The notes under the pieces are model-generated. The model made no database searches and was not told where the DNA came from. It saw only the letters and a program-made list of their open reading frames with translations. This document shows, piece after piece, positions 5,030 through 44,303 of a stretch of 64,000 nucleotides of DNA (position 1 is the stretch's first letter; each line of letters begins with the position of its first letter). Made by a program: the position numbers and the translations under genes. The stretch lies in the NCBI GenBank assembly GCA_051294905.1, contig CM119371.1, positions 7,256,001 to 7,320,000 of the forward strand, given 5' to 3'. This DNA is from Botryllus schlosseri. Its lineage: Eukaryota.

Positions 5030-6649
5030 CTATCTCTTCACAAATACAGATCTGTAAATCACAAAACATTCATCTACTTTTGGTGTCACTATAGTCCATT
5101 TGTCTTGTGTTATATCATACTTTTCAATTTTATTAGCGGTTTTTCCTTCTGATACTGCAAAAATCCACTTGTCATGTTGATAAGCAGAAACTCGATCATG
5201 AGGAGCATTCATAGATAAAAATGAAGTCCATTGAGCTGAAGTAACATCGTAACATTCAACGTTGTTGACTTGAAATCCTCCACTCCATCCACCGATCACA
5301 AATATCTTGTGATCAACTGCAACAACACCACTGTCAGTCACAGGATATCTCATTGGGTCGAGATCAACCCACTCTGATGAGGATGGAGTGAATCTGCAGA
5401 ATGATGAAACTATGACATCATCTTGTCCTACACCTCCGATACAATAGATGGAATCGTTCAATGATACGAGACTTGTATTACAAATCGCTGTAGGTTTGTC
5501 TTCTAGTTGAATCCATTGATTCACAAGGGAAGTAAATATTTCCACGTCACTTGTTGCTTTAGGATAACTTCCGCCCACGACAAATATCGATCCCGACTAA
5601 GAAACTGCACGAGGATAGTTTCCATGATCACAAATCATATCTTTCATCTTTTCCCACGTTGATTTTTCGCTCTGAAAATTGAGTCGGTAAACTGATTTCG
5701 TCACACACAAAACGTAGATATACGAGTCTAGAGAAATCGCAGAGAAAAGTGGTAAATTCTTAAACTTCTCATCATGGAACTTGTCTACTTTTTCAGTTAC
5801 TGGATTGAAGGATCGGATACAATCTGCGTCACGATCAAAAAGAATTATCAATTCATCTTTGCCAATTTCTTTGTTTCTTTTTTGTGATGCTTTTAAAAGA
5901 TGTCCATTGATCAACTTGTACAGTCCTAAGTTGTTACTGATAATTAGGTTCGATTCCAAAAGACGTTCTAAAAATGCCGGAGAGACTTTATCAAACTTGA
6001 TTGCTTCGAGACATTCGTCCAAATGTTCCTGATTTCTGCAATTTTTCTCCACCCAATCGAACAATAAAATTAGTTTTTCTTCTTCACATAACTTTGATTT
6101 TTCCGACATCACAAATTTGAGGAGGTTAGTTTTTTCAATGTTTCCAAATTCTGGTTGGTTTGATATTTTTATGATATTTTCAATAAAAAACGCTTCACAT
6201 CGCGTAGAGAGGGCATCCAGTCCATAAATATCGGCAACATTTCTTGTGGAAAAGTAGTTCTCTACATCAACTGATTCCGCCAAAACGTCAGATACTGCCT
6301 GCTTCACATCTTCCAGCTGCATCATGACTGCGACATGTAGAAGATCATTCATCTTTTCATCAGGAATCTCAAATTTTCCCGAATATATGAAATCGATGCA
6401 GTTTTTCACACACCTTGAATCGACCTCTTTCAAAACAACTTTTCCTTCACGACACTCTTTTGTGTCGTGTTTCAACATAGCTTTAAAATAATCACAACCA
6501 GCCGACAATACATTTCTGTGAGTGTAATAAACATCATCTCCCACTTGAATTGTGAAATCACAATGATCGTTCTCTCGCTTCATTCGATGTAATTCTTCCA
6601 TCATCTTCACTGAATGTTTCTCTACATTTTGACACACAATCTGCACCAT
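5030..6649 (-). pseudogene. Intronless BTB-BACK-Kelch (kelch-like) gene, copy A, with one in-frame TAG at 5597-5599
   Basis: BTB (CDFTIQV..HRNVLSAGCDYFKAM..FIYSG), BACK, and Kelch repeats (IYCIGG, IFVIGG, VECYD..W). ORFs 5597-6658 and 5030-5578 are in the same frame; the paralog has TTG (Leu) at the stop position. Confidence 0.9.
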
Positions 6650-7186
6650 GATTGTCAATCAACTATAATTATCCTACGATTATTATAATATAGTCAAGCA
6701 CTGTTATTGAATTAAAGATGATTAGAAAGTAATGCCTGTTGAAAGAATCATAATACGTACCGGTACATCAACGTCATGAGTATGAATTGAAGGAAATTCA
6801 ACTACACATAGGGTGATCACTGAACAGTGCTAAATCAGAGGCATCCCTCTCATAATGTTATGAAAACTTCTTTATATTTTATACTGTGGTATATTCCAGG
6901 GGCGACCGCACCTATTTCATGCTCCAACCTAATACCACAAAGATTGGTTTTAACAGAGCAGCAACACGAATGATCACGGCATCACGCTGATTTCGATCCC
7001 CGTGTTTGGAAACGAAACCAGCGAAGCATGCGGCTTGTCAGTGTCATCTGACGGATAATTAGTTTTTGCATTTGCAGTGCAGACGTTACTGTAGGAACTC
7101 GTTTCCTACTGAGTAGTTAACTAACTACGTAACTCTCATTTCGATACTGAGAACGCCAGACAAGTATAGCTACACTCAATCTGTAA

Positions 7187-7885
7187 TCACAACAACAATA
7201 ACTGGGCAAATGCGCACCCTTGTTTGCAGTTCGTAGCCTTCATACCGAAAGTTTTGTGGTAGTGACAGATGAAAACTCCACTTGCGCTGTTTACTTCTGC
7301 CTGTGGGGCGATATCCTGCGCGTCATGGCGTAAGGCGCTCACGTTGGCTGTCTGAGCTGCGAAAAACACTCTATCCGCAACTTCGGCCAGTTTTTCAACA
7401 TCTGTTTCTGCGGATGTGGCCAGCGCTGTTCGCACTGCAGCAGGTAGCTGGGCCAACCAGAACGCTCGCAGTAATGTCTCTTGACTGCCACCTAGCGCGC
7501 GCATGTATCTCAACAACCCAGACGGCTTTCTGTCTCCTAAGCCGGCTATGTTAAGAAGTTCAGAGTCCTTAACTTCTTGTGGCTTGCCATATACTTTGAT
7601 TAGCGCCCTTTTGGTAGCAGAGTACTTTTCTGTTGCTGGCGGGTCAGTAAGGAGAGAGGAAATTTCGCTAGCAGTGGCGTTATCTAACACCGAAACCACA
7701 TGGTTAAATTTCGTTTCATCTCGAGTGATGCGTGCAGCCTCGAACTGAGCTTCAGCTCTAGCGAACCACAAAGTAGGGTTGTCAGTCCATATTGACGGAA
7801 GTTTAACGCTTACCGCATTAGCTGTCGAAGGAATGACGAGATTCTTCAGTGCGTCGGTCAATCCCTGCAAAGCGGCGTTATCCAT
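7187..7885 (-). CDS. Gypsy-type Gag protein, truncated and running into the LTR remnant
   Basis: VKLPSIWTDNPTLWFARAEAQF N-terminal motif, LGDRKPSGLL, and C-terminal CHYH..FG..A..C...C motif typical of invertebrate Gypsy Gag; no pol follows. Confidence 0.85.
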   Translation of the reverse strand: MDNAALQGLTDALKNLVIPSTANAVSVKLPSIWTDNPTLWFARAEAQFEAARITRDETKFNHVVSVLDNATASEISSLLTDPPATEKYSATKRALIKVYGKPQEVKDSELLNIAGLGDRKPSGLLRYMRALGGSQETLLRAFWLAQLPAAVRTALATSAETDVEKLAEVADRVFFAAQTANVSALRHDAQDIAPQAEVNSASGVFICHYHKTFGMKATNCKQGCAFAQLLLL

Positions 7886-7953
7886 GTTGGAAAGCGTCAG
7901 TATAATCCTGGCTGTGCACAATATTTGTGGTCTTCTGGAGTCTTCCAGGTAGT

Positions 7954-7965
7954 TCGGGGTCACCA
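7954..7965 (-). other. Primer-binding site (tRNA-Trp-like)
   Basis: TGGTGACCCCGA, 1 nt after the 5' LTR end; complementary to the conserved eukaryotic tRNA-Trp 3' end (recalled from memory). Confidence 0.75.
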
Positions 7966-8930
7966 ATGTAGGAACTCGTTTCCTACTGAGTAGTTAACTA
8001 ACTACGTAACTCTCATTTCGATACTGAGAACGCCAGACAAATATAGCTACACTCAATCTGTAATCACAACAACAATAATATGAACATGCTCTCTGACTGA
8101 CTACTGTGAAGCCGCCGGAATATGAACACGTCATAAATACGAATCTGCTGACTCATTGTCTACGCAGTGTTTCGCTCGTCGATGTACCAAATATTCATCA
8201 CGGTAATTACATACTTTAATGGAAATCCACCAAATCAAAACAAAATTATATATTTCGAGTGCATGAAAGTGACTGTGCATTTGTTTACTTCTGCTGTATT
8301 TGTTTTGTGTCAACTTGAACTCGGTTATCTTTCATTGCATCGCAGCCTTGTGGTGTATTGAAGTGAATTGAATTAGTTTCTGCAATGCGCCTCTATTTCA
8401 AACGGTTGCAGTGAATTCCGTACGTTGAAATCGGCAGTTGGTGAATTTGACACTTCCAATGTAATAACTATCATTATGAAATCAATGCAAAAATATTGTA
8501 TTAATAAATTTGGAAACGAATATTTCACGAAGTAATAAAGTGAAGTGTAGTTATACGGCACTCGGTATCGTTGTTTTCGGGCTCGGGTTTAGGTTTAGGC
8601 TAGTGTTGAGAGAGACATATTTTATTCGGTAAAAATTACATTCAAAAATATACTACAGGCTGCAGCGATACGATCCTTAGGGATAATCCAGTCAGCTGCA
8701 TCGAGGGAGTACTAAAGCGTCTTTCAAGTCGAGTTCCGCGTAAAGAATAAATTAAAACAGGGGTTATAGCTTTGTGTCAGCGGCTCGGGGTTCGATTAAG
8801 TTAAAGACGTTGTGGTAGGGGGGGGGGGGGTGAGGATTAGGCCTCCGAATTTACTGATAACCTTTCAAAAAGTCTTTAGTACCAAGCCTCAATGTATGGC
8901 TGGAGGTAAATATAGAAAAATATCAACTAC

Positions 8931-9280
8931 TAGAGGTGGTTAAATTAGTCGTATTTGGTACTCAAGTAGAAGTATAGAGGCGTCGTCGTAATCTCTATAG
9001 TCAAGTATACAGTAGAAGAAGCGAATTGCAATCCGCTAAATAACTAAGTATTTCGGCTTGGTTTTGCCATAAAAACTGAAAACTGTTGAGTGTAAGTAGT
9101 CCAAAATGATAACCACTTGAGTAATTTGTCCAAGTAGGCAAAATGAACATGAGTAGGCTACTTTAAGTAGAAGTGAAAGTAGCCTATATATGTAAACAGT
9201 CGAGTAATTATTAGCGCAAATAGGAAAAACATACTTGACTACTCTGGAAAAGTAGAAATACTTAGATACTGACCATCTCT
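8931..9280. mobile_element. Degenerate hAT-like MITE (AAGTAG-rich), related to 50530-51367
   Basis: Termini TAGAGGTGGT...ACCATCTCTG and repeated aagtag motifs; no TSD found. Confidence 0.4.
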
Positions 9281-9642
9281 GTCGAGGTCAGGGACAATAG
9301 CTGCTCGCTCATGGCCAGAGTTCACCCTTGAGCAACTGGCTTACTGTTATATAACGTATAGCCTGCGAGGGTATACAGCGAGTTCGTGGTCTACGGATAG
9401 CGGCTTACAAATATACTGGAAGTGAGACGAACGTCCTGACGAATGAGTCCTTGACTAGTAGTTAAACACACGACTATCGCCTTTTCCAGATATATTGTAC
9501 GAATAAATCACACATGAGTCTATCTAGTTAATATACGATAGGCATTGGGTTATATACCATGTACGAATAGAGATCACGTGATCACGTGCATGCATCATCG
9601 GTAAATGAATTGAACAGCGGTACGAGTACAAAATGTAAGAAT

Positions 9643-10171
9643 TAAGGCAAGTTTTTGTTGCAGTCAAATCCGTGGAAAGTTGCACTTATTTTTTATAAAA
9701 GTTGCAACGAAAAGTTGCATTTAATTTCCACAAAAGTTGCACCAAAAGCTGCAGTTATGGACAAGTGCCTAGAAAGTATTAGGGTATAAGATATTCGAAT
9801 CGTTCTATATTCAAGGCAATGCAGCAAAACTTAATGTTGGCAACTTGAACAATGTCAATAGCCTGAAAAACTTGATCCGGCGGTCAAGTTCGAATGTACG
9901 TCAAATCAGAAAGGACCTCAAATTTAAACGACAGTGAAATAATCAAGCGATCTATTTACATATAGTAGCAAATATTTCCAGTAAGAAATTATTTGTATAG
10001 AAAATCGAAAAAAAACTTGCTAGAAGTTGCATGAAAAATCGAAAAGAGTTGCAAAATTTGCAATATAATAAACCTCCAAACAGCTTAAATTGGTATAGGC
10101 CTACTACATAACTTCTGAGTATTTAGGAAGCTGCCGGAAGTTAAAAAAAAAAATTGCAAAAACTTGCCCTA
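9643..10171. mobile_element. hAT-type MITE
   Basis: TIRs TAAGGCAAGTTTTTG/CAAAAACTTGCCCTA; 8-bp TSD gtaagaat/gtaataat (7/8); aagttgca subterminal repeats; related inverted fragment near 32890-33090. Confidence 0.7.
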
Positions 10172-10900
10172 GTAATAATTGTAATATTCAACTGTATAGA
10201 ATAGCCTATATGTTAACGCTGTAAGGTCGAATCCAGTAGTCAATGATATTATTTTATAAGGGGATATGACTTGCAAAAGGCAGAAATCTTTTGTCGAACG
10301 CAAAATGTCAGTTAGTCTTTGATACAGATGACCACCATTTATTTACAAGGCCGCATAGGAAGCCGCGAAATTGCCGAATTGGTAGCAACAGTCAATGCTC
10401 AAAGTTTACGAATCGATCCACTGGGATCAGCGAAGCTCTGTCGCGGTAATTGTGATTACCATATATAATCGCGATATGACTTTCGCAACTATAACCGATT
10501 TAGTTGGTCGGGTGCGAAGCTGAACTACTGGTGCGGTAAACATCCGGTCGAAGATCACATTCATATTAGTGCCGCACACTGCATTCGTAGGTCATGCGAT
10601 TAGCGACCAATTCCACGTGTACGGTGTAAATATCGGACAGGTAGTGAGTAATTGTCTTTCGAAAGAGCATTTCGGAATTCAGCAATTCACGCGGTCCTGA
10701 CGGCGGGAAGGGGGTCCGATTTCTGCAACAAGAAGTCGGCAGCAGTATCACGACAACAAACGAAATGCACATTTACTAAACAAGAAAAATAATAACAATA
10801 ATGTATTAATTACAATAAATGCGTATACAGACAATAGGAATGCAACAAGGCAGGCAACTAATCAGATCAATGACGTAATGAATCTAGCAAATACAAGTAT

Positions 10901-11918
10901 TCATGGAATGGTATGACTTTTGGACACGGCAGACATAATGTGGTGTATTCTCACGTCCAATTTCGTGGCGCCGCAGATGATTTTAAATAGTATCCATGCT
11001 CGATAATCTCGAATTTTCGCGATTTGGTTATCAAGCTGATCAGCGGAGCAGCAATGATAATTAAGCCAATTAGGGAAGCATACTGCGTCCGCAGACATGC
11101 AAACACAAACACCGCAGCTGAATGAATCCGATTGTTTGACCAAACATTTCAATTTGTACCCCCGTACATGACAGCGGGTGGTGTTGTTCACGTGCGGAAA
11201 TAAATGCTCGATCACTTTCATATTGAAATCAATGGGTGAAGGGCCAAGTGAGTCATAAATCGTGATATATTCGTCATCACTGCTGACTGTCAACAAGATA
11301 AAGTGCTTTCGCCAAAGTAAAGGGTATAACAAAACAAACGAGTCTTGGGTTTGGTTAACATATTTTGGGTATAGCGAACGAAGCGACTCCCTTTTATACG
11401 ATTTATTTGCCAGTATTTCTGCCGTCAAATCCGGATTGACGCAGAAAATTTGTTTTTTGGAGTTTGTCTTGGAAGCAATTAAAGCGGAATTTTCGATATA
11501 TCGGTATACCATTGTGACTGTCAACCAGCCATTGGGATCGGAAGTGTTTTTTTGCCTGCTGGGTCCGGGTCTGTTACAGGTAAAATCAGACAATGGTCTT
11601 GTGGAGAGTATATCGGACCAACAAATGACGTTTGTGTCACATTTAACGGCTACAGTATTCATATCTTCGATATCTTCCGCTTGATGCCAGACTTTATTGG
11701 AAAGTCTAAGGCAACACCCTTCGAATGTTTGTGGTGGTAACAGCCCAGGAAAAGGTGCGTCTTTCAGATACGCAGGTATTGTGTCCGCGCATGCAACCAG
11801 CATGCTATTAGTCGATTCCTGTTCTCGAGATTCCTGCAACGCAACGACTGATGACACTGCATTTTTGTCTTTTGTATTTGGCCGAAAAGGTTGGCCAGCC
11901 CTGACTAGCAGCTTATCT
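10901..11918 (-). CDS. Ulp1/SENP (peptidase C48) SUMO/ubiquitin-like protease domain; probably a terminal exon
   Basis: Open frame with catalytic motifs in the correct order: PLLWRKHFILL (His), YDSL (Asp), KQSDSFSCGVCV (Gln, Cys). The frame opens upstream of the GTG call, next to a possible acceptor AG at ~11919. Confidence 0.85.
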
Positions 11919-12548
11919 TAAAGTCATTATGGAAAAATCGTTGCGTAGGCTTATATCACAGGAGAAAATGTTTTTTTTTTAAATTTCGAAGTCACCATGA
12001 TTGACCTTGCTCATTCAATTTTTTTGTTACAATCCCCAACAAAACATCTCTAAACAGCATTTTTTTTGTATCAGTAGGCTATTGATAGCAATTTAGCAAT
12101 AAATATGAGTCTGCACAGTAGGATATTTCATCTCAGATGACGACTCTGTGGATGATGAGCTCTGGAGTTTTACTATAGTAAGGAAGCAAAACTGCATCGT
12201 GATTTTCCGGATTAAGAAATAATACAAATTAATTTATCAACTACTTCCAGGCTTCGCGGACCCCCGGTGGAGAACCGATGACTTAGATACAGTAAATTAG
12301 CACTAAAGAAGAGCTGCGGCAGGTATTTTTGGAGCTGGGCCGGTAAGATGACCTTTTTTGTCAACCGACCACGAAGTGGGAAAACTTTACCATTTTTTAG
12401 GATTTTCCTCCGGTTTTGCAAGTCTGAAAATTTTGAAAAAGTGTCCTCTTTTCAGATTTCCAAAATATGATACCCCTACTATAACATGCGATGTTTCCAA
12501 GAATTTCACACGACACGTATAAGCGCTCACGCAACAAATAATATTACG

Positions 12549-15500
12549 ATTGTGAATTATGAAATCGTAATTTTGGGTGCGTATTTCAAAGTATTTCGCT
12601 GACTATACCTTTAATGATGTGATAAAATGAATGCATTTTTAGAATAGTATGATACTCTACGTACATCGTGTGCAAATATAAGCGTCTTAGTGATATATTG
12701 CGATGCCCTAATGAAGGATAGGAATAGTTTGTATTGAAGGTTGCGTTGCCGCTATTGTGAAATCGTAGTTTTGGATGCGTATTTTAAAGTATTTCGCTGA
12801 CTATACCATTAATGATGTGATAAAATGAATGCATTTTTAGAATAGTAGGATACTTTATCTACATCGTGTGCAAATATAAGCGTCTTAGTAATATATTGCG
12901 ATGCCCTAATGAGTGATAGGAATAGTTTGTATTGAAGGTTGCGTTGCCGCTATTGTGAAATCGTAATTTTGGGTGCGAATTTCAAAGTATTTCGCTGACT
13001 ATACCATTAATGATGTGATAAAATGAATGCATTTTTAGAATAGTAGGATACTTTATCTACATCGTGTGCAAATATAAGCGTCTTAGTAATATATTGCGAT
13101 GCCCTAATGAGTGATAGGAATAGTTTGTATTGAAGGTTGCGTTGCCGCTATTGTGAAATCGTAATTTTGGGTGCGAATTTCAAAGTATTTCGCTGACTAT
13201 ACCTTTAATGATGTGATAAAATGAATGCATTTTTAGAATAGTATGATACTCTATGTACATCGTGTGCAAATATAAGCGTCTTAGTGATATATTGCGATGC
13301 CCTAATGAAGGATAGGAATAGTTTGTATTGAAGGTTGCGTTGCCGCTATTGTGAAATCGTAGTTTTGGATGCGTATTTTAAAGTATTTCGCTGACTATAC
13401 CATTAATGATGTGATAAAATGAATGCATTTTTAGAATAGTAGGATACTTTATCTACATCGTGTGCAAATATAAGCGTCTTAGTAATATATTGCGATGACC
13501 TAATGATTGATAGGAATAGTTTGTATTGAAGGTTGCGTTGCCGCTATTGTGAAATCGTAATTTTGGGTGCGAATTTCAAAGTATTTCGCTGACTATACCT
13601 TTAATGATGTGATAAAATGAATGCATTTTTAGAATAGTATGATACTCTATGTACATCGTGTGCAAATATAAGCGTCTTAGTGATATATTGCGATGCCCTA
13701 ATGAAGGATAGGAATAGTTTGTATTGAAGGTTGCGTTGCCGCTATTGTGAAATCGTAGTTTTGGTGCGTATTTTAAAGTATTTCGCTGACTATACCATTA
13801 ATGATGTGATAAAATGAATGCATTTTTAGAATAGTAGGATACTTTATCTACATCGTGTGCAAATATAAGCGTCTTAGTGACATATTGCGATGCCCTAATG
13901 AAGGATAGGAATAGTTTGTATTGAAGGTTGCGTTGCCGCTATTGTGAAATCGTAGTTTTGGATGCGTATTTTAAAGTATTTCGCTGACTATACCATTAAT
14001 GATGTGATAAAATGAATGCATTTTTAGAATAGTAGGATACTTTATCTACATCGTGTGCAAATATAAGCGTCTTAGTAATATATTGCGATGCCCTAATGAG
14101 TGATAGGAATAGTTTGTATTGAAGGTTGCGTTGCCGCTATTGTGAAATCGTGATTTTGGATGCGTATTTAAAGTATTTCGCTGACTATACCATTAATGAT
14201 GTGATAAAATGAATGCATTTTTAGAATAGTATGATACTCTATGTACATCGTGTGCAAATATAAGCGTCTTAGTGATATATTGCGATGCCCTAATGAAGGA
14301 TAGGAATGGTTTGTATTGAAGGTTGCGTTGCCGCTATTGTGAAATCGTAGTTTTGGATGCGTATTTTAAAGTATTTCGCTGACTATACCATTAATGATGT
14401 GATAAAATGAATGCATTTTTAGAATAGTAGGATACTTTATCTACATCGTGTGCAAATATAAGCGTCTTAGTAATATATTGCGATGCCCTAATGAGTGATA
14501 GGAATAGTTTGTATTGAAGGTTGCGTTGCCGCTATTGTGAAATCGTAATTTTGGGTGCGAATTTCAAAGTATTTCGCTGACTATACCTTTAATGATGTGA
14601 TAAAATGAATGCATTTTTAGAATAGTATGATACTCTATGTACATCGTGTGCAAATATAAGCGTCTTAGTGATATATTGCGATGCCCTAATGAAGGATAGG
14701 AATAGTTTGTATTGAAGGTTGCGTTGCCGCTATTGTGAAATCGTAGTTTTGGTGCGTATTTTAAAGTATTTCGCTGACTATACCATTAATGATGTGATAA
14801 AATGAATGCATTTTTAGAATAGTAGGATACTTTATCTACATCGTGTGCAAATATAAGCGTCTTAGTAATATATTGCGATGCCCTAATGAGTGATAGGAAT
14901 AGTTTGTATGAAGGTTGCGCTACCGCTATTGTGAAATCGTAATTTTGGATGCGTATTTAAAGTATTTCGGTGACTATGCCTTTAATGATGTGATAAAATG
15001 AATGCATTTTTAGAATAGTATGATACTCTATGTACATCGTGTGCAAATATAAGCGTCTTAGTGATATATTGCGATGCCCTAATGAAGGATAGGAATGGTT
15101 TGTATTGAAGGTTGCGTTGCCGCTATTGTGAAATCGTAGTTTTGGATGCGTATTTTAAAGTATTTCGCTGACTATACCTTTAATGATGTGATGAAATGAA
15201 TGCATTTTTAGAATAGTAGGATACTTTATCTACATCGTGTGCAAATATAAGCGTCTTAGTGATATATTGCGATGCCCTAATGAGTGATAGGAATAGTTTG
15301 TATGAAGGTTGCGCTACCGCTATTGTGAAATCGTAATTTTGGATGCGTATTTAAAGTATTTCGCTGACTATACCATTAATGATGTGATAAAATGAATGCA
15401 TTTTTAGAATAGTAGGATACTTTATCTACATCGTGTGCAAATATAAGCGTCTTAGTAATATATTGCGATGCCCTAATGAGTGATAGGAATAGTTTGTATT

Positions 15501-16780
15501 GAAGGTTGCGTTGCCGCTATTGTGAAATCGTAGTTTTGGATGCGTATTTTAAAGTATTTCGCTGACTATACCATTAATGATGTGATAAAATGAATGCATT
15601 TTTAGAATAGTAGGATACTTTATCTACATCGTGTGCAAATATAAGCGTCTTAGTAATATATTGCGATGCCCTAATGAGTGATAGGAATAGTTTGTATTGA
15701 AGGTTGCGTTGCCGCTATTGTGAAATCGTAGTTTTGGATGCGTATTTTAAAGTATTTCGCTGACTATACCTTTAATGATGTGATGAAATGAATGCATTTT
15801 TAGAATAGTAGGATACTTTATCTACATCGTGTGCAAATATAAGCGTCTTAGTGATATGTTGCGATGCCCTAATGAGTGATAGGAATAGTTTGTATTGAAA
15901 GTTGCGTTGCCGCTATTGTGAAATCGTAGTTTTGGATGCGTATTTTACCTTTATGATGTGATAAAATGAATGCATTTTTAGAATAGTATGATACTCTATG
16001 TTCATCGTGTGCAAATATAAGCGTCTTAGTAATATATTGCGATGCCCTAATGAGTGATAGGAATAGTTAGTTCGCATTGAAGGCTGCGTTGCTGCTATTG
16101 TGAAATCGTGATTTTGGATGCGTATTTAAAGTATTTCGCTGACTATACCATTAATGATGTGATAAAATGAATGCATTTTTAGAATAGTATGATACTCTAT
16201 GTACATCGTGTGCAAATATAAGCGTCTTAGTAATATATTGCGATGCCCTGCCCTAATGAGTGATAGGAATAGTTTGTATTGAAGGTTGCGTTGCCGCTAT
16301 TGTGAAATCGTAGTTTTGGATGCGTATTTTAAAGTATTTCGCTGACTATACCATTAATGATGTGATAAAATGAATGCATTTTTAGAATAGTATGATACTC
16401 TATGTACATCGTGTGCAAATATAAGCGTCTTAGTGATATATTGCGATGCCCTAATGAGTGATAGGAATAGTTTGTATTGAAGGTTGCGCTACCGCTATTG
16501 TGAAATCGTAATTTTGGATGCGTATTTAAAGTATTTCGGTGACTATACCTTTAATGATGTGATAAAATGAATGCATTTTTAGAATAGTAGGATACTATAT
16601 TAATATCGTGTGCCAATATAACCGTCTTAGTGTTATATTGCGGTGCCCTCTAATGAGTGATAGGAATAGTTAGGTTGCGTTGCCACTTTTGTAAAATCGT
16701 AATTTTTGATGAGTATTTAAAGTATTTCGCTGACTATACCTTTAAGGATGTGATATGTGATGCCGCTATTGTGATATCGT
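12549..16780. repeat. Tandem satellite, 198-bp unit, ~21 copies
   Basis: gaaatcgta recurs at 12561, 12759, 12957, etc.; units near-identical with two recurring variants; degenerate at the right end. Confidence 0.97.
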
Positions 16781-18954
16781 AGTGCTAGTGGTATGTTGTG
16801 ATGGTCGTATGGTCGGTGTGAAATTCGAAACTCAATGTTTGAAACCCTTCTAAACTGATATTATTGCCGTCCTTATTTTATTACATTACTCACATCACCA
16901 CATAATACTCTAAAACACGATACTGATGCGATACTACAACATGAATTCATATATTACCGTGTTGAATATTTGATATACTGACGGGCGAAGCACTCACATG
17001 ATAGTGATTCAGCATAACCGTATATATGACGTAAGCATATTCCGGCGGCTTCACAGTGGTCTCTGACTGGCACCTTTTGAGCGTGCAAGTCAGAGCGGTA
17101 CGAATGTATCAGAATGTTAATATTTGAACGGTAACGCGTCAGGAATAAGCGTAGTACATTTACGAGTCGCGATCGCTTGGATATAGTTTGTAGGTGTATT
17201 ATGTGCAGCTACATTACCAATGATATTTATATATATATACTTATCATTGCGGTTAGTGACGAGATAAACCTTGTACTATGAGTAACAGTAATTCAGTTTG
17301 TTAATATTTTCATCATTTCAAAACACCACAAGACTGCGATCAGGCGATGTAGAGAAGAGGCATGCGCGAACGAGGGCGTGGATGCACTGAGCTATATAAA
17401 CACTGGAGTGCGTTACTCGCGATATTTGCGTGATCAATTGGCCGCCATCTTTGGGTTAAGTTGATGGTTGCGCGTTAAGCTGGTAGTCAAGGCAGAAAAG
17501 GTTGGTTGATGTGACTGTTTTGATTACTCTTTGGCCTGGACATATCGATTTCGATGGTTCGGACAAGATAAGGTTATATATGTGTCATTGTATGTATTCA
17601 TTTGCAAATATCTTCCTGATGTAGATTGCTTAACTCGTTGTATCCAGGTAAATAAACATATGCTTCTGCTCAAAAATTCCTGCTGGCCTTGAGTGCTGTT
17701 TTCACAGTTACTGGGATAAGTCAATTGTCATGACATTGATAATTCGATTTGGATATGATACCGTTAATCCTAAGGGAGCTTGATAATGTTGTCTTCTCTA
17801 TCCCTACAGTTTCAGGTACTGTGTATGGCAATTTGATTTGGATATGATGCCATTAATCCTGAGGGAGCTTGCTGATGTTGTCTTTATACTCATTATAGCT
17901 TCAGTTTCATGTACTGCGTCCTCGAATTGTTGTTGCAAGCACACACTGTAATTAACTATTCTTACAAATCTTGAAAACCAGCAAACAGGCACATCTCAAG
18001 TATAAATAATTACCAAGCTATCAAATGATTGCAATGGATATTGTCAGTTTTGTTGTTATTTCCCAGGTACTGTATCTATAGGTAGTAAAAGCATATATGG
18101 CTATGACCACCAGCTTCAAGTTATTACCGGAGACTGCCTCAGAATCAGCCTGGCCTCGATTCAAAATCTTCTCACTACAATGGCGCTGATGTCAATGCTA
18201 TCGCTGCCAGCTACGTGGTGGCTATGAATACCACTGGCGGAGGAAAATTCAGCATCATGTGACATGACAAAGGCACAGCTACAATCAAAGTTATACGATC
18301 TAATTGTTATTCTACTTATTCATTGTGTCAAAGTAGTCGAAATAAATTGTAGAGAGTGAAAGTGAGGATATGTGAGTTATGTGTAGCAATATGGGTTAGC
18401 GATTTCTGCAGAGGTGATCAAATGAGAGAAATAATATATTTATATCATTAAATGAGAGATACAAGATGAATGCATGAGTCCGTATTTAGATCGGGGTAGA
18501 ATTGCCTAGTACTCACTGAAATTGACGCTATGTTGGTTACAACAATCTGCACTCGGAGTTTATTATCGTTATTGATTTGATCAGATCAATCATCGATGAA
18601 AAGATAGCAAGGTAACGCAACGACCTGAGGTAATCTACAAAATCTACACCCACCCACCTTTCGTTGCCTGCTAGATGAAGCATTCCTACCTGGTGCATTT
18701 TCGGATCAACCATTTCTCGGATCACGCAGTTGCTGCCTACCTGATCCCTTTCTTCCCTACAAGACGATACATTACAACCTGGCTTTCGATCAACCATTTC
18801 TGGGATCACACGAAATACCGCGCTGTACTGTCTAGTAACCAAACTTTCGTTTTCAGAAACACTAGCTTCAGTCATGAGAAACGCAAGGTTATGAATGATT
18901 TTTCTATTAAAATAAGTAACATAAAAAAAATAAAAACAGAAATATATTAATTCA

Positions 18955-19920
18955 TCATCATCATTGGTTTATTAGCAATTTTATCAGTTCAATACACCAC
19001 AAAAATGCGATACAATGAATAGACAGGAAGATGTCGAAGCGACTTGGATTTGTCAATGGAATCGGACACCCACCTTGGCCTAGGCGTAGTAAAGAGGAGG
19101 CATGCACACTGAATGAAAGTAAAGAATACAGTATAGAAAAAGAAAGCGACAAGAAATAGGGCGGCATGTCATGGGAAGCGAGATCGATAGGTCAGTCGTG
19201 GTCCGGTAATCTTGAGGATGGACTGTATTTATTTAGTAGTAATTGCTTGTATTTCGACTTGAATGTGGACATGCTCGTCGACTGTCGGATGGCCGGCGGG
19301 ATACTGTTCCACACATCAGGTCCGGCATATTTGATGGAGCGATGATCTTTTTGGTCGATCATATGATATTTGGACGACGTGGACGCGCGTGTGTTGTACT
19401 TGTGCGCTTTTGATTCAGAGGTAAACTTGTGCGCTTTTGATTCAGAGGTAAAGAAGTCATTGAAATATTCGGGGCAACGACCGCAGTGAAACTGATACAT
19501 AAACTTGACGATTTCTAGTTTCCGCATATCTTCTATGTTTAGGACGCCGAATCTCTTCAGCAGCGACTTATTGGATGGGCAGCCAGGCCCCTTTGGGGCC
19601 CTAGCTATGATTCGGAGCACTTTATGCTGTAGTTTCTGCAGTGGCTTGAGTGCAGTTTTACTGGCAGCCCCCCAAAAGAGGATGCCATAATGTAACTTCG
19701 ATTGGATTAAGGATTTAAAGAGTATCAGGAGAACCCATGCTGGCATGAAGCGCCCAAGGCTGTAGAACAGGCCGGTGATAATTTGGTTTCTAGGGACTGA
19801 ATATGACTCTTCCAGGACATGTTCGAGTCCAGTAAAACTCCGAGATATTTGGCATTATCTGTGTTGGAAACGGGCTGACCAGCGATATTAACGGTTAGGT
19901 TATTTTTTGAATTGACTGTC
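18955..19920 (-). mobile_element. 5'-truncated CR1/L2-clade LINE (RT C-terminus and 3' UTR)
   Basis: KYLGVLLDSNMSWKSHI, LHYGILFWG, YNTR, GPDVWNSIP motifs; (TGA)n tail at ~18955; frameshift near 19740. Confidence 0.85.
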
Positions 19921-20059: not shown

Positions 20060-21420
20060 AGACCAAATTTGCTGACCACTCCCATCTAGCAAAGTACCCA
20101 TTCTGCTAGGCGGTTTCTGATGAGTTTGAGCATTTGACTAGGACTAAAATTACTTGGATTTGATGATTGGGTAAATATGGACCAGGAAAACTAGACTCAA
20201 TGTTCCTGGATGATATGTTTGCCCGCAATGCGGAAGGCCAAGCGGAGTGGCAGGAAAGCCCGTCGCATGTCAATGATGCAACAGTTGCACCGGTTTCGTT
20301 AAGCTTGTTCATGCAAATTTCAACCAAATTTGCTCGTTCCGATCCTGTCAAACCATTAATGAAAAAGAATCCAAGCGGAATTTTCCAGGATGAATTGACG
20401 CAAACAGCCATAAAAACTAATGCATCTCTTGCCAGTGGCAAAGAATCATCGTCCTCGCAGTCAGTACCTATGTCTACATATCCTCATTATCTTCTTCCAT
20501 CCCAAAAAACCTGTCTGCGGATCGACATTTCATCCATCATTATGGAACATATTACAGGAGCTGTTGATGCCTCTACTTTTCCTCTGATAGCAGAAAACGC
20601 AATACCAGTAAAGCCAGGCTCAGCGGGAAGTTTTCCATACCAGCGTCTTATCACATTCGGATGGGGAAGAGCGAGTTGAAAATTTTGACGCACAAAATTG
20701 TATGCCCTAGCAGAATAATACTGCAGCGTCATTGCAAAAATATTGCAGTTCTTTAGAGTATTTGACTCCTCTTCCACCAACTTGTAGCTTCATGCGCTGC
20801 AACAGCTCACTTGGTAGACGACTGAATTTTTGTGGCATTACTTCTCTGCACAAATCGCTGATCAAATTTTTTTTTTTCAGAGATGCAATGACCTCATCCA
20901 GAGTTTTCACTTTTTTTCTCAGGCAGCATGTCCTCATTTTGGCAGCATGCAACCCCTTTTTAATTTGTACCACTCTACGGCGTTGCTGTTGAATCAGCTT
21001 TTGAGGAGAGGTACGTGCACAGTAACTGCGGTCGTGGAGAACTGCTTCACCAGTTTGTGCTTTACAATAACGTTTCTTGTCTTGAAGTGTTGCTGGTCTT
21101 GCTTGCCGTTTGTTGGAAGCCTGAAATTCACGAATTTCACATCAACAGAGGCTAGGGTAAGGGTATACTTATATGAACTTAACTTTAGAAGTAAATATAT
21201 AAATGTCTACTGTACCTTTGACCTCATATATTTCGGAAAGTTCAGAAATCTCGTTGGCACCGCATTCTCCCTCAAACGTATCAACTGGCCCACATGGTAA
21301 ATGGCACTTTCCGGAAAATGATCGGAGCAGATAACTGACGATCTTGATGGGACCCAGTTTTTTTCTTTTCATGCTTTCTAACCATCTTCCTTTCAGCGAT
21401 TCATTAGTAGGAAAGCTGCA
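20060..21420 (-). pseudogene. P-element/THAP9-like transposase relic
   Basis: Frameshifted fragments: THAP-like (FP...RW...ICSDHF ~21310-21415), FAMTLQYYSARAYNFVR..LALPH, MDEMSIRRQVFWDG, ALVFMAV..SSWKIPLGFF, SLTCDG. Confidence 0.85.
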
Positions 21421-22134
21421 TTATATGGAGCATTGTATGAAGCAAAGCACACTAAATAGTCAATTCTTTGTTATGAGCTATGATAAAAGCAGAAGGGACA
21501 TAAAATAACTTGTCTGATAAAATTATACATCTGCCACTTTTCACTCCATAGGCTATTGTATTCAAGATTGCCGCAGCCTTCTAAAGCTAAAGCAGTTCAA
21601 AGGTAAACCTTGAAAAATATTTTTGAATAAATAAATTGACAGTTTCGCACAAAGCTATAAGGACTAAAGATGAACTCGACTATGGAATTTGCAAATTCCA
21701 CAGTATTTGTTTAGCATCTGAAAAAGATATCCTGTTTTAACTATGCTGATGAAAACCCATCTAGGCCATTAATTGAATCTTTTCCTTGTATTCCTACTCT
21801 TGCCTACATAGCATAAGCAAGAATTGAATACTAAACTGATTATTGGCCGAACTGCTTGTACTCGATCATGGACAAAATACGAAGAGTGAGATGGACATTA
21901 TTACAGATATTGATGATGAACATTACATAGAGGATATGGTGACACGGATTTCTGCTGGTAGTCTGGTCTGGTCATTTCATTCATATAGCTGCAACGAAAT
22001 GTTCGGCACTTCTTCGATGGCAGTCAGACATCGAAAGTGTTCACCATGATCACCGATGAATGTTTTCCATGAACACGAAAAAAAAAATTATAAACGTCAA
22101 AATATATTTTTTTTGTGCCTTTCGAAAGACGAAT

Positions 22135-22455
22135 GTTAGGGTTGGGGTGGGGGGTATTAGGGTGGGGGGAAAGGGGGATATTAGGGTTGTCGGAGGCGAT
22201 ATTAGTGTTAGGATTGGTGGATGGGGATATTAGGGTTGGCGGAGGGGATATTAGTGTTAGGATTGGTGGATATTAGTGTTAGGATTGGTGGATAGGGATA
22301 TTAGGGTTGGGGTGGGGGGTATTAGGGTGGGGGGTATTAGGGTTGGCGGAGGGGATATTAGTGTTAGGATTGGTGGATGGGGATATTAGGGTTGGCGGAG
22401 GGGACATTAGTGTTAGGATTGGTGGATAGTAATATTAGGGTTGGGGGAGGGGGAG
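22135..22455 (+). repeat. G-rich modular minisatellite (TTAGGG-containing) in left arm
   Basis: Modules attagggttgg(gg/cgg)..., attagtgttaggattggtgga. Confidence 0.9.
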
Positions 22456-24834
22456 ATAGCGTACTCGTAACGATAAGCGCCCACCAATCTGGCGGACCCG
22501 TCGGCGATTCCCGTCGGGGGTTTATGTGGGCTCCTCTTCCCTCGCCGTTGCCGCTCTTACGGAGACAAAAAAGACCAACGAAAGAAAGCACTCACAAGGA
22601 ATGGAAAGAACTAGTAGAAAGGACCGCGGCTTCAATGCGTGTCGTTCGACATCCTCCTATCTGCTCATTACATCGCATTTTGCCTTATCGCATGTACATT
22701 GTGTGTGACTTGTTCAGATGAAACATATAACCCAACGATTAACAATATGATATTATTACTATTAGGGTTGAGGTGGGGAATGTTAGGGTCCATTCATTAC
22801 ATTCAGCACCCATTACCATCCGTTCAAAAGATACATATTTTCCAATTGCCAAGACAGAAAGTATCGAATCTTTCATTCGAGCACGGGGTTAGATCGTTCT
22901 AGTTCATTACAAAACTGATTCAAATATAAGCGAGTGATTAATATGATGCCTATTGAATCAATAGGTTACGTCAATTCACGCGGAGTCATCATTACAAACG
23001 ATGGAAAAACATAAGCGGGTGAATTCAAGCCTGCAGGCTCGTGCCGCTAGGACATACTTTGCGATAGGTGATGCTGGAGCAAACTGATGATAATCAGTAT
23101 GTTGATATTTCATCCTTTCGAATACACGAAAAGATTGCGATTGAACGAAAAAATTGGAAGGTATTGAAACGACATTTAGTAGTCGTTGAAACCGGACATT
23201 CGGACACCACACTTCCTGTAGCCATAAGACAGTGTAAAGAGGCACTTACGTCGTTGTAGCCTTGTAGGATGGGCAGTTGGACACTGAATATAAAGTAACA
23301 GAAGTGATGGGATGATAGCCTAATGAAGTGGCATGTTTCGGAATGATGGGCCGATATATCAAATTGAGATTTGAATGTGGACGTTCTTGACGACTGTCGG
23401 GATGGCCTTCGAGGCTTTTAGCGATGTCTTTCCCAAACTTATTTCCACGGCGTATTTCAATATCGAATATATTCCACATATCGATAGGAAGTCTTGAATC
23501 GACAGGTGAAGTCAATGCACGCATTCATGGAAGAACACGAGCATATGGAATTATAGATAACAATGTCTTGGCGAACGGGACTTAATAATTTCGATTTTCT
23601 CGACGGCAAATTGAAAGTTGAAAAGTATCGGGATAGACGTCGTTGAATGACCAGTAGCCAAAACTATTCTTTCAAACTATTGGTAAATATACTCCTACAC
23701 AACTTGTGAAGCAGACGCAGTACAAATACAGTTGATGCCATGCAGCATTCACAATCAATCCTAATGAGTATTGTATGATACACGATAAATAGCCTATGCG
23801 GTATGTATTTTCATGACAAGTTGATTCTGCGTGTGTACTAAGTTGTTTCTGCTTGTGTGTACTAACTTTTTGACTTCTTAGGGTGAAGCAGAACGCACTA
23901 ACACCGTACTGATGCATCATTAGTGGTGTGTTTCACTCATTTCCGCCCGTAGGAAGGGTGTGGAGAAACGATTTGGTACCCGAGTGATGCTGTACCGTAG
24001 AACCTTAGCTAACCTATTCCTTGAAATTGACATGATGCTGCCGGCGGCGATTACCAAGTTGAAAAAGTGGCCCTTTACTCTTTTCGAGTTGGTAGCCCCT
24101 GCTCTGATATCACTATACCACTATATGTCACTGCATGCACATTGCACCATGCACAATGCACATGTCTGTCTGAGGAGCACTGGAGACGGTACAATTCACG
24201 CATTGTTTTGTTAACGAATGAAATATAATAAATGTAGCAAAGCCAACGAAAAAATACAGTGTAAATCATGGATGTAAATAAGTATAAATTCAAACAGGAT
24301 AGCGAGTGCGAATCTGATTTATCAAATTCTGAAATGGATCGTCGCCGAATTTGAGGCGCCACATGAATTCAAATAAGTACGTATCCAGGAGAGTACGATG
24401 AGTCCCGCACTCCCGCTTATTTCTCTGTTTCGCTCGGGCCCACATTGATTCAACGTGATTTGTCGTTGCGTGGGAGATATCATATTATTAATCGTTGGGT
24501 TATATGTTTCATCTGAACAAGTCACACACAATGTACATGCGATAAGACAAAATGCGATGTAATGAACAGATAGGAGGATGTCGAACGACACGCATGCAGT
24601 TGCGATCCTTTTAATCTAATTTCCACCTCGGTCTAGAGTGCCCGATGTCGCAGTTCTTTTCTATGTTGATCTTATCGAAGCCGTGCCCGATGTCGCAGTT
24701 CATTTCGATGTTGATCTTATTGAAGCCGCGGTCCTTTCTACTAGTTCTTTCCATTCCTTGTGAGTGCATTCTTTCGTTGGTCTTTTTTGTCTCCGTAAGA
24801 GCGGCAACGTCGAGGGAAGAGGAGCCCACATAAA

Positions 24835-24903
24835 CCTCCGACGGGAATCGAACCGGGTCCGCCAGATTGGTGGGCGCTTATCGTTACGACTACGCTATCT
24901 CCC
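24835..24903 (-). promoter_or_regulatory. tRNA-like RNA polymerase III A-box/B-box cassette (mirror copy at ~22452-22520 with damaged B box)
   Basis: A-box-like TAGCGTAGTCG (24887-24897) and canonical B box GGTTCGATTCC (24844-24854), 32 nt apart; no acceptor stem. Confidence 0.55.
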
Positions 24904-25320
24904 CCTCCCCCAACCCTAATATTACTATCCACCAATCCTAACACTAATGTCCCCTCCGCCAACCCTAATATCCCCATCCACCAATCCTAACACTAATGTC
25001 CCCTCCGCCAACCCTAATATCCCCCTTTCCCCCACCCTAATACCCCCCACCCCAACCCTAATATTACTATCCACCAATCCTAACACTAATATCCCCTCCG
25101 CCAACCCTAATATCCCCCTTTCCCCCACCCTAATACCCCCCACCCCAACCCTAATATTACTATCCACCAATCCTAACACTAATATCCACCAATCCTAACA
25201 CTAATATCCCCTCCGCCAACCCTAATATCCCCATCCACCAATCCTAACACTAATATCGCCTCCGACAACCCTAATATCCCCCTTTCCCCCCACCCTAATA
25301 CCCCCCACCCCAACCCTAAC
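24900..25320 (-). repeat. C-rich mirror minisatellite in right arm
   Basis: Reverse complement of the 22135-22455 modules with more copies. Confidence 0.9.
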
Positions 25321-25979
25321 ATTCGTCTTTCGAAAGGCACAAAAAAAAAATATTTTGACGTTTATAATTTTTTTTTCGTGTTCATGGAAAACATTCATCG
25401 GTGATCATGGTGAACACTTTTCGATGTCTGACTGCCATCGAAGAAGTGCCAAATGTTCTGCTATCACTTTACCATGACCTGTTCATTACAACTGTGACTG
25501 ATCTGGGCATGTCTGGCTGCTATGCTTATTCTGTTATTCACTTACCGGTGAAAATTTCTGGGGTATCGACGCTTTACCATCGACTCTTCATCACTACTGC
25601 CGTTACTATTACTTCTCCCATACGACTCACTGGATATCTTGTTCCGCCTTTTACTACACCCATAGGCACAGCAAAGGCTACCACTACCACCTGATGAACG
25701 TACTATCTTCGACATGTCGAATTACACAGAATATCAATATACTGACACGAGATATTGGGCTGAAACAAATCCTGAATGTTAGAATAATTAGTCATTCAAA
25801 GCTCTATACGCATACAATACTACAGAGCCAACACGAATCAAATATATTCAAACACTGACCGCTTTTCCATAAGCCCCTGTACTAAATCGATTAACCGAGC
25901 ACCCACAATGCATCTGCGCATTGGGATCACGCAAATTTGCTTAGCTGGAGATAGCAGTAGTTCGGGGCTTGCGTGGATG

Positions 25980-27334: not shown

Positions 27335-27896
27335 GAAGATATGGGGAAGCTAGAAATCGCCAGGTTTATCCATCAGTTCAACTGCGGTCGTTGCCCCGAA
27401 TATTTCAATGACTTTTTTACCTCGGAATCAAAAGCGCACAAGTACAACACAAGCGCGTGCACGTCGTCCAAATATCATATGATCGACCGAAAATATCATC
27501 GCTCCATTAAGTATGCCGGACCTGATGTGTGGAACAGTATCCCGCCGGCTATCCGACAGTCGACGAGCATGACCACATTCAAGTCGAAATACAAGCAATT
27601 ACTACTAAATAAATACTAGTTCACCCTCAAGATTACCGGACCACGACTGACCTATCGATCTCGCCTTCCATGACATACCACCCCATTCTTGTTGCTTGCT
27701 TTTTCTATATTTTCTTTACTTTTCATTCAGTGTGCATGTGTGCCATGTGCATGCCTCCTCTTTACATCGTCTGGGCGAATGTGGGTGTCCGATTTCATAG
27801 ACTACTCCCAAGTCGCTTCGAGACCTTCCTACCTTTCATTGTATCGCATTTATGTGGTGTATTGAACTGATAAAATTGCTAATAAACCAATGATGA
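27335..27896 (+). mobile_element. 5'-truncated CR1/L2 LINE copy
   Basis: Near-identical to 18955-19530 in reverse; ends ccaatgatga; the paralogous site in unit B (ggagaagttgccc, ~63303) is empty. Confidence 0.85.
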
Positions 27897-36890: not shown

Positions 36891-37311
36891 TATTACGGCT
36901 CTTCAAGATCAACTCGAATTACGTAGCAAGGCTCCCGGTAGTCAACGCGTACCACAACCAAATCCACACTTGTATATCCTTCAATATATTCGTTGACTAA
37001 AGCCAAGGCGCATGAATCTTCTTTTTGCAGTGGAAATACGGAAGTGATACGGTGAACTAAAAGTTACACAAAAACAGAATCAATACTAGCCTACTGAGTC
37101 CTACCTAACAATGCAAATCTTACCAATTTATTCCGGCAACAATCCTACACTAACATCATTGATCTTAATTACTAATTATGCCTGTAGAAAGGTAAACAAT
37201 TACTAAATATGCCAATTAAATATGAACAACAGCAGACCAAGAGCACGGCTTACATCAGAATCACACGCATGGCTTGGTACTTCTAAACAACGATGGTACG
37301 CTATCGTTACA
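36891..37311 (-). repeat. 3' LTR of BEL/Pao element
   Basis: Minus-strand TGTAAC...CCGTAATA, preceded by purine tract AGGGGGGGAA (37312-37321). Confidence 0.95.
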
Positions 37312-37398
37312 TTCCCCCCCTAGAAATGACTGCATTTCTAAATAACATTAACACCAAAACTAAACAGTTTAACAGTAAACAAAAAACTCCTCGTCGGG

Positions 37399-43692: not shown

Positions 43693-43882
43693 TCTGATTC
43701 CTTCCTTACGGCTCAATAATGATGTCTTGAATCTTTACAGTATAACTCCACCTTCCTTCGGAGTGCAAAACCTTCACCAAGCTTAGGCTGACTTGAAAAT
43801 GTCCACTATTGTTGTGAATTGTTCACTAACAATATCTTGTTCACTATAGATTGTTCAGTAAATTGTTCATTAAATTGTTCAC

Positions 43883-44303
43883 TATTACGGCTCTTCAAGA
43901 TCAACTCGAATTACGTAGCAAGGCTCCCGGTAGTCAACGCGTACCACAACCAAATCCACACTTGTATATCCTTCAATATATTCGTTGACTAAAGCCAAGG
44001 CGCATGAATCTTCTTTTTGCAGTGGAAATACGGAAGTGATACGGTGAACTAAAAGTTACACAAAAACAGAATCAATACTAGCCTACTGAGTCCTACCTAA
44101 CAATGCAAATCTTACCAATTTATTCCGGCAACAATCCTACACTAACATCATTGATCTTAATTACTAATTATGCCTGTAGAAAGGTAAACAATTACTAAAT
44201 ATGCCAATTAAATATGAACAACAGCAGACCAAGAGCACGGCTTACATCAGAATCACACGCATGGCTTGGTACTTCTAAACAACGATGGTACGCTATCGTT
44301 ACA
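43883..44303 (-). repeat. 5' LTR of BEL/Pao element
   Basis: Matches 36891-37311. Confidence 0.95.

Follow-up and report, generated by a model that had tools for sequence, protein, structure and literature searches.

A recently inserted 9-kb element with an Ulp1-type protease frame and no transposase is probably a deletion derivative of a Rehavkus-like Mutator transposon

A 9-kb unit in the 64-kb window (the whole stretch of DNA that was analysed) raises the question of whether a transposon-borne Ulp1-type protease and the satellite array beside it form a new system or are remains of a known one. The original prediction was that of a mobile deSUMOylase or anti-silencing module with the array as its cis partner; nothing that we tested supports this, and we rate the idea lower than before. 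The element itself is real, was recently inserted and lacks a transposase of its own, while its SUMO-protease-like domain and array are most likely remnants of a transposon of known type and not a new anti-silencing system. We interpret it as probably a non-autonomous, internally deleted derivative of a Rehavkus-like Mutator element, the parent transposase of which ends in an Ulp1-type protease that is often followed by a USP domain.

The unit is bounded as predicted (about 110-bp terminal inverted repeats, TIRs, and a 9-bp target-site duplication, TSD). The arms (8099-8207 and 16953-17061) are 108-109 nt long and imperfect, with 79% complementarity, but their outermost 25 bases contain a single mismatch, and blastn aligns one arm with the other at an E value of 1.7e-19. 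The TSD, CTCTGACTG, is identical at 9 of 9 positions; a 10-bp reading is also possible, 9 bp being favoured by the symmetry of the TIRs. Ginger1 elements produce 4-bp and Zisupton elements 8-bp TSDs, and the 9-bp TSD lies outside both lengths; these two groups also have an integrase or KDZ core of their own, whereas the core in the nearest relatives of the protease is MULE-like. At position 8100 exactly, a contig from run X9 (record 17) stops matching the window and continues with 254 unlike letters; the left end thus lies on a different flank in another sample, which implies that the element family moves. The window copy probably sits in the 5' LTR of a small LTR-retroelement relic, which has LTR-like repeats (7967-8078 and 7090-7201; 112 bp) that are 99.1% identical, differing at 1 of 112 bases, and a DUF7041 frame (7187-7993; Pfam E 3.4e-20).

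Table 1. Features of the element and its insertion site, in window positions
Feature	Position	Strand	Remark
Small LTR-retroelement relic, insertion context	7090..8078	-	direct repeats and DUF7041 frame
Left TSD, 9 bp	8091..8099	.	same letters as 17061-17069
Left TIR	8100..8207	+	79% complementary to right TIR
Dispersed high-copy repeat piece	8326..8366	.	matches 17313-17340, 18984-19019 and 27830-27870; depth spike in bin 8292-8464
Nested high-copy MITE, presumably hAT-like	9643..10171	.	TAGGG/TAAGG ends; 7/8 flanking duplication; depth spike
338-codon open frame	10901..11917	-	stop to stop; Ulp1/C48 from about codon 130 (11530) to 315 (10973)
Catalytic residues of the frame	H205 11303-11305, D222 11252-11254, Q262 11132-11134, C268 11114-11116 (span 11114..11305)	-	from alignments
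Terminal motif over first codons of the frame, taken by us to be hAT-like	11860..11903	-	motif scan; inner limit approximate
Patchwork of high-copy repeats, expected site of transposase core	11925..12478	.	X4 depth 15,000-143,000
Tandem array, 198-bp unit, 21.3 copies	12556..16755	.	mean pairwise identity 95.5%; one side only
Right TIR	16953..17060	-	pairs with left TIR
Right TSD, 9 bp	17061..17069	.	same letters as 8091-8099

The predicted uninterrupted frame of more than 300 codons with a His-Asp-Gln-Cys set is present, with both profile and fold matches to C48 proteases. Codon 39 is its first Met. Shuffling 8100-12555 300 times gave a longest frame of 215 codons, compared with the 338 observed. 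The Peptidase_C48 profile comparison proposed with the prediction gave a match above the cut-off (E 7.9e-7; 29.6 bits, cut-off 20.7). The His-Asp-Cys triad and the oxyanion Gln are all present and a GW motif is kept; H, Q and C are invariant across alignments of 8 and 13 sequences. The predicted structure has pLDDT values mostly of 80-90 over residues 131-280, and its core resembles Ulp1, SENP and NEDP1 structures (Foldseek E 1.9e-7 to Ulp1). Against this model, SENP and NEDP1/DEN1 structures give similar scores (TM by target 0.52-0.64 vs 0.60-0.61), so that SUMO and NEDD8 proteases are not distinguished by the predicted fold. Pfam and fold would also fit a piece captured from a host SENP or NEDP1 gene, but the best sequence match among solved structures is human SENP5 at E 0.088, host SENPs are absent from the protein matches described below and the profile of a transposon-borne subfamily scores far higher, making such an origin very improbable.

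To place the protease, we searched 1.84 billion proteins and obtained 9 matches, all of one transposon-borne Ulp1 subfamily. Layouts of relatives include PHD-core-Ulp1-UCH (P0010), Ulp1-UCH (P0005) and Ulp1 with the start of UCH (P0008). P0026 is a second PHD-core protein, which runs through Ulp1 into the start of USP; the PHD matches in P0010 and P0026 fall below the curated cut-off, and by model features the core of P0026 lies closest to MULE clusters (0.92-0.90, at the level of a lead). On the profile of these relatives the window domain reaches 108.6 bits, compared with 29.6 on Pfam C48 and 14.9 on human SENP5. The window protease is most closely related to domains at the C-termini of long, MULE-like transposases. 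The window domain belongs to the same Ulp1 subfamily as P0010 and P0026, but identity is only 22-31%, the window element lacks a USP remnant and the TIR and array sequences differ. In a tree of 13 domains the window sequence forms a long branch in no supported clade. Word-indexed protein searches returned no matches for P0001, nor for alignment A1 among longer proteins, and A1 gave 83 pattern matches in viral contigs, of which 0 were confirmed.

At 23 redundant related loci, USP lies downstream in 17, the core upstream in 5 and arrays of 180-215 bp occur in 8; in 5 of the 23 the array lies upstream of Ulp1 with no core between, and locus L013 has the order array-core-Ulp1. Subterminal arrays of about 200 bp are a standing feature of related Ulp1-bearing elements, and 5' arrays also occur in relatives of the protease. 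The 4.2-kb array predicted beside the frame was confirmed at 21 units of 198 bp. It lies 198 bases inside one TIR, 5' of the Ulp1 frame, and is one-sided, whereas L009 and L008/L012 have mirrored arms. Its unit has no match elsewhere in the 64-kb window, no coding frame and no Rfam match, and it does not resemble the arrays of related loci; neither TIRs nor array show DNA similarity to the 23 loci.

The element was predicted to lack a transposase and to be moved in trans while carrying a C48 domain, which agrees with the left end on another flank and with the frames searched: the 12 read-through frames covering 8200-10960 and 11600-12800 contain no transposase or other Pfam family. Neither a MULE-type DDE core nor a PHD finger was found in the element, 11925-12478 holds no coding match and a separate MULE frame of the window (59984-60625) matches neither the element nor P0010. 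A TIR pattern scan for other carriers gave 0 matches in contigs from metagenomes, viruses and prokaryotes. As a side observation, the Ulp1 stop falls, in register, where the USP domain begins in P0005 and P0026, and an 'IP' followed in another frame by 'NTC' resembled the Cys box of that domain. A USP remnant after the stop was rejected, since profile, frameshift-aware and anchored tests stayed at chance (16.0 vs null 19.8 ± 3.7; 205 of 400 shuffles as high).

While the Ulp1 frame and the array were borne out as contents of the unit, its nested high-copy repeats had been missed. For the MITE, runs X4 and X9 show loose ends at 9646 and a joint that skips 9623-10174 (with short sides of 26 and 22). 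Many unlike loose ends lie behind 12469/12478 in the patchwork, with hAT-like ends at 12280 and 12478. Codons ~5-19 of the frame overlap the hAT-like repeat end at 11903, and X4 depth climbs from 170 to 1933 across the bin holding this motif. Such a hAT-like end at the 5' edge of the frame fits an origin in which the TIRs are those of an unrelated MULE-type family and the Ulp1 piece, perhaps with the array, was gained from a Rehavkus-like element, either Pack-MULE style or via a nested hAT-like insertion. The short imperfect TIRs and one-sided array, unlike the foldback arms of related loci and without DNA similarity to them, also speak for this capture, as does a left arm deeper than the protease in three runs. 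However, the order of array then Ulp1 and the unit length fit deleted relatives, no second hAT-like end was found below the frame at 1 mismatch and a deletion series explains the depth equally well; we consider a capture quite unlikely.

We then compared the element with known systems. As far as the available text of the sources goes, Rehavkus elements have a 9-bp TSD, TIRs of 26-400 bp, a minisatellite and a PHD finger (PMC6446971) and form an outgroup or sister of MULEs (PMC6446971; bioRxiv 10.1101/2024.12.02.626372). In the Rehavkus/MULE pattern, either a minisatellite adjoins the 3' TIR or both arms carry mirrored arrays. The element shares the TSD, a TIR length within this range and a subterminal tandem array able to expand, and its protease relatives sit in PHD-bearing MULE-like transposases; unlike Rehavkus, it has no PHD or DDE core, and its array lies on one side only, 5' of the frame. 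An Ulp1 domain goes unmentioned for Rehavkus in the portions available of these two sources. An Ulp1/C48 domain is described, in the accessible part of PMC2836005, as a C-terminal transposase part of Ginger1 and of Mutator elements of hydra and lancelet; the element resembles these in its C48 domain and differs in having no transposase and, from Ginger1, in its TSD. Filing it as a Rehavkus/MULE derivative is our inference, with the core absent here and present in the relatives of the protease.

Next, we asked how the frame fares in other copies. Length changes break it in 2 of the 4 listed contig pieces wholly inside it: X4 record 6 has a net +4 and X6 record 15 a net -2, where the 2-base gap could lie upstream of the conserved core. 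Four X4 contigs share a 1-base loss at 10957. Left-arm depth exceeds that of the protease 5' bins 3.1-fold in X4, 2.5-fold in X6 and 16-fold in X9, depth not being a copy number. The original prediction had named a leftover MULE transposase exon, or copies that lack the protease or decay, as findings that would speak against it; these were encountered in part, the relatives being MULE-like transposase C-termini and other copies being broken or apparently devoid of the 5' part of the domain. Seven X6 pieces differ at 66 of 3382 bases, and at only ~2% divergence an open frame is unsurprising: in simulations, neutral survival over 1-1.5% per lineage was 14-43% with indels. Over 5% per lineage it fell to 0.2-2.5% with indels and 14% without. 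A non-coding stretch past the stop is common to copies 6-11% diverged (records 4, 5 and 19), which together with the low neutral survival implies that the frame was selected for part of that time, in an autonomous parent or alone.

Selection on the frame alone would mean that an Ulp1-type enzyme is expressed by the core-less element from a spliced transcript and, by taking SUMO or some other ubiquitin-like tag off silencing factors, helps the family in trans, as an animal analogue of the plant KIU/VANC genes. According to the available text of PMC6117577 and PMC13317346, Kaonashi (KIU) or VANC-Ulp1 is a C48 domain of plant VANDAL MULEs that has an intact catalytic set, is distant from host ULPs and shows low or undetectable expression; it forms a gene of its own, joined to a VANC part that targets DNA, in non-TIR elements that also have their own transposase gene. 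This precedent matches the element in its MULE type and complete C48 catalytic set, but the element has TIRs, an animal context, no transposase gene and no further domain such as a VANC-like one. The kept catalytic residues and GW motif favour a selected passenger, as does the Ulp1-terminal layout common to the 6-11% diverged copies, one of which, X9 record 22, is gap-free across the Asp-to-Cys stretch and has 21 substitutions; the frame-breaking indels, the shallow protease 5' part and a frame start held by a nested repeat end argue against it. A splice-acceptor-like site at 11571 precedes the domain core (crude scan), whereas no upstream coding exon was found in the read-through frames. None of the 30 reads of RNA run X21 is 95% alike and none falls on the frame, and run X9, guessed to be RNA, follows the DNA depth profile (Spearman 0.92). 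Another animal's contigs hold two Ulp1 frames without core or USP, with the same stop position and 105 of 246 residues identical; these show an excess of differences at third positions (144 vs 97 and 87); in L005, the 10 kb upstream of the stand-alone frame have no core match (best E 0.12). However, all 5 changes that separate the two alleles of the stand-alone frame in L004/L005 are non-synonymous, a residue is altered by 2 of the 3 single-base differences listed for the window frame, the fold does not tell SUMO from NEDD8 proteases and the array unit resembles nothing outside the element. TIRs or a TSD around the two frames in L004 were not found. We therefore regard the passenger as unlikely, and it is equally doubtful that an animal lineage of transposase-less TIR elements keeps a selected, spliced Ulp1 protease against SUMO-dependent silencing in trans, with the L004/L005 frames as a second case and the broken sisters as ordinary losers.

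Under the preferred reading of a deletion derivative, the PHD and DDE region of the ancestral element would have been deleted, and its space would now be taken up by high-copy MITEs and by a 198-bp subterminal array that is expanding. A related transposase may bind the near-perfect outer 25 bp and mobilise the unit by cut-and-paste, making cuts staggered by 9 bp; the window copy would have inserted recently, into a young LTR relic. The Ulp1 frame would ride along as a leftover 3' part or last exon, open here mainly through little elapsed time and being lost in sister copies. We counted against this reading that no core or USP remnant was found, nor a TIR-sharing autonomous element in contig scans. 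The unplaced position of the domain in the tree, the one-sided array, the low neutral survival over 5% per lineage and the non-significant 0.1 bit that codons 1-125 score on the pre-Ulp1 linker profile of relatives were counted likewise.

Taken as a deletion derivative, the element has little importance of its own: it extends the Ulp1 lineages of animal Mutator-like elements by one and offers a case of a satellite that grows within a transposon. Were the stand-alone reading correct, this would be a counter-silencing gene of an animal, carried with no transposase alongside, and our literature search found no example of such a gene. Free of introns and with all its catalytic residues, the domain lends itself readily to a specificity assay. 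Transposons repeatedly carry Ulp1 domains, as the available parts of PMC2836005 and PMC13317346 indicate, and the role of these domains there is the real question behind this element.

The element spans 8961 bases; the window around it is animal-like, transposon-rich sequence. Its TIRs of 108-109 bases are 79% complementary, with a single mismatch within the outermost 25, and a perfect 9-base duplication flanks it; counting this duplication as 10 bases is possible at the cost of TIR symmetry. Between the ends lie a C48 protease frame and an array of 21.3 units of 198 bases with a mean likeness of 95.5%, which confirms the anatomy described in the original prediction. Within the right TIR (16995-17015, minus strand), an ATG opens a short frame and is accompanied by a donor-like GTGAGT, a likely chance occurrence.

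Coordinates of features in the window and, where named, in a related contig locus (L004)
Feature	Position	Strand	Remarks
TIR element	8100-17060		
High-copy repeat	~8326-8366		run comparison
High-copy repeat	9643-10171		TAGGG/TAAGG ends, flanking duplication 7/8
High-copy repeats	11925-12478		run comparison
Open frame	10901-11917	-	338 codons, stop to stop; sole recognisable coding stretch in element
Ulp1 frame	L004 3521-4402	+	without core or USP
Ulp1 frame	L004 11174-12136	-	without core or USP
Second core-less foldback element	46679-54796		long inverted arms of ~141-bp units, perfect 9-bp duplication
2111-codon frame	37399-43734	-	uninterrupted, inserted between parts 44253-45509 and 36454-36918 of a presumed BTB-kelch-like gene
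Two similar intron-poor genes, presumably BTB-kelch-like	5030-6658; 36454-45509	-	in the former, a stop separates a 353-codon from a 188-codon frame
Canonical MULE transposase piece	59623-60625	-	split between two reading frames; E 1.2e-11 to Pfam MULE
P-element-like HTH fragment	20707-21141	-	Pfam E 2.9e-4, below cut-off; among nested inverted-repeat units 19225-19425 / 27416-27616 and 22079-22500 / 24854-25376

The protease frame exceeds the longest frame obtained from 300 shuffles (215 codons). Its product matched Pfam Peptidase_C48 above the curated cut-off, bearing out the predicted domain, and keeps the catalytic set H205, D222, Q262 and C268. The predicted structure, confident over about residues 131-280 and below 50 in confidence over 1-130, resembles Ulp1, SENP and NEDP1 structures about equally. 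The frame had been described as uninterrupted and longer than 300 codons; it is indeed open, but its full length overstates the gene, because a terminal motif that we take to be hAT-like begins at 11903, within the opening codons, and the first Met is codon 39. Twelve frames read through stops (8200-10960 and 11600-12800) yielded no Pfam families.

A search of 1.84 billion proteins returned nine homologues (E 8e-9 to 5e-4, identity 25-38%), three of which run on into a USP/UCH domain. In the relative P0010 (2074 aa) a PHD finger and a central core are joined to Ulp1 and UCH, a layout repeated in P0026; it was confirmed only in assemblies other than this one. By language-model features the P0026 core is closest to MULE clusters; Pfam did not call MULE in it, and a BLAST comparison with the window's own MULE frame stayed at chance. 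The fish protein P0027 shows another cargo combination: there the same core family is joined to a Macro domain, a stretch resembling Ulp1 and, at the C-terminus, a PHD finger. The subfamily of the window protease is clear: against a leave-one-out profile built from eight relatives its domain scored 108.6 bits (the lowest among nine tested), far exceeding its human SENP5 match. A 13-row tree singles out no exact parent, as the domain's long branch falls outside every supported clade.

The frame's stop coincides with the start of the USP domain in P0010, P0026 and a third relative, P0005, and three of three tests found no USP remnant in the element. Among 23 metagenome loci, many of them near-duplicates, 17 have USP downstream, 5 have the core upstream and 5 have neither; 180-215-base arrays occur in 8, and in 5 an array lies upstream of Ulp1 without an intervening core. 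In one locus, L013, an array is followed first by the core and then by Ulp1. Array length class thus appears to be a family trait, the unit sequence being unrelated to those of the related arrays. The two L004 frames are convergent, 43% identical and share a Tyr-Gly-stop end at the USP junction, with an acceptor-like site near the start of each; their database versions read through these stops as Trp. This parallel cuts both ways, because the two frames show a third-position excess, whereas all five differences between the L004 and L005 alleles are non-synonymous.

Could the protease be a selected stand-alone gene? We checked the frame in four pieces lying wholly inside it, among the 23 matches listed (of ~36,900). 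By net length, an X6 piece is 2 bases short and an X4 piece 4 bases long; one piece is identical and another, with 21 substitutions, gap-free (among the matches listed). The X6 gap could lie upstream of the conserved core. These indels argue against a stand-alone gene, as does the shallower 5' part of the domain, whose bins were exceeded by left-arm bins 3.1-, 2.5- and 16-fold, in the same direction in all three runs, although depth is not copy number. A base at 10957, beyond the catalytic core, is missing from four X4 contigs, and two of the three single-base differences listed within the frame alter a residue. Of the 30 reads from the RNA run X21, none reached 95% likeness, and the X9 depth profile behaves like DNA. 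An open frame is unsurprising in a young copy, because 14-43% of simulated frames of equal length stayed open at 1-1.5% divergence, indels included. Survival fell to 0.2-2.5% at 5%, and the more diverged pieces share a non-coding stretch beyond the stop; part of the frame's history was therefore spent under constraint. This constraint would be explained equally well by an autonomous parent with Ulp1 at its end and by a stand-alone gene, and we consider the latter unlikely.

X9 record 17, oriented after other minus-strand records in the same table, matches 8100-9134 and continues into 254 unlike letters past 8100; the element's left end is therefore present at another site. X6 record 9 starts at 8103. 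The element adjoins a small retroelement relic and probably sits inside its LTR; because the relic's LTR repeats differ at only 1 of 112 bases, the insertion is young. Among the matches listed, seven X6 pieces together show 66 differences from the window in 3382 bases, and a second group diverges by 6-11%.

Comparison of four sequencing runs across 7600-12760 revealed a patchwork interior, which the original prediction had missed. The repeat at 9643-10171 is skipped by single contigs in X4 and in X9, weak evidence because the matched sides are short. The array-to-left-arm depth ratio at 12617-12760 was roughly 19 (X4), 5 (X6) and 1 (X9), hinting that array lengths differ greatly among individuals or copies.

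Elsewhere in the window, the interior of the second foldback element had no match to P0010, P0026, P0027, P0005 or the query protein P0001, and the MULE piece showed no similarity to the element. By motifs, we take the 2111-codon frame to be a BEL/Pao-type gag-pol polyprotein.

Rehavkus elements are described with a 9-bp TSD, TIRs of 26-400 bp, a PHD finger and a minisatellite ahead of the 3' TIR (PMC6446971), and with subterminal repeats that expand to long arrays (bioRxiv 10.1101/2024.12.02.626372). Ulp1 is listed at the Ginger1 C-terminus, and hydra, lancelet and plants are named as hosts of Mutator elements that carry it (PMC2836005). Plant KIU genes are reported as intact and barely expressed, with an Ulp1 role that is unknown, and some are joined to anti-silencing VANC (PMC6117577, PMC13317346); the passages of PMC13359780 leave proteases unmentioned. 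We found no published work combining at least four among Ulp1, transposase, ubiquitin-specific protease, PHD and foldback.

The element is probably non-autonomous and derived from a type of transposon that is already known. The original prediction suggested a mobile deSUMOylase or anti-silencing module moved in trans, possibly with the array as cis partner, a reading that is supported in part. Movement in trans holds up as most likely: the TIRs, the TSD and the second flank suggest that a related Mutator-type transposase would act through the conserved outer TIR bases. Nothing tested ties the array to the protease, which we infer to be a passenger remnant. The array may change length by unequal exchange, as suggested by unit variants that alternate along it and by the depth ratios. 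Given the core-less array-Ulp1 layouts among the 23 loci, the layout in the window appears to be one that related elements have reached repeatedly by deletion.
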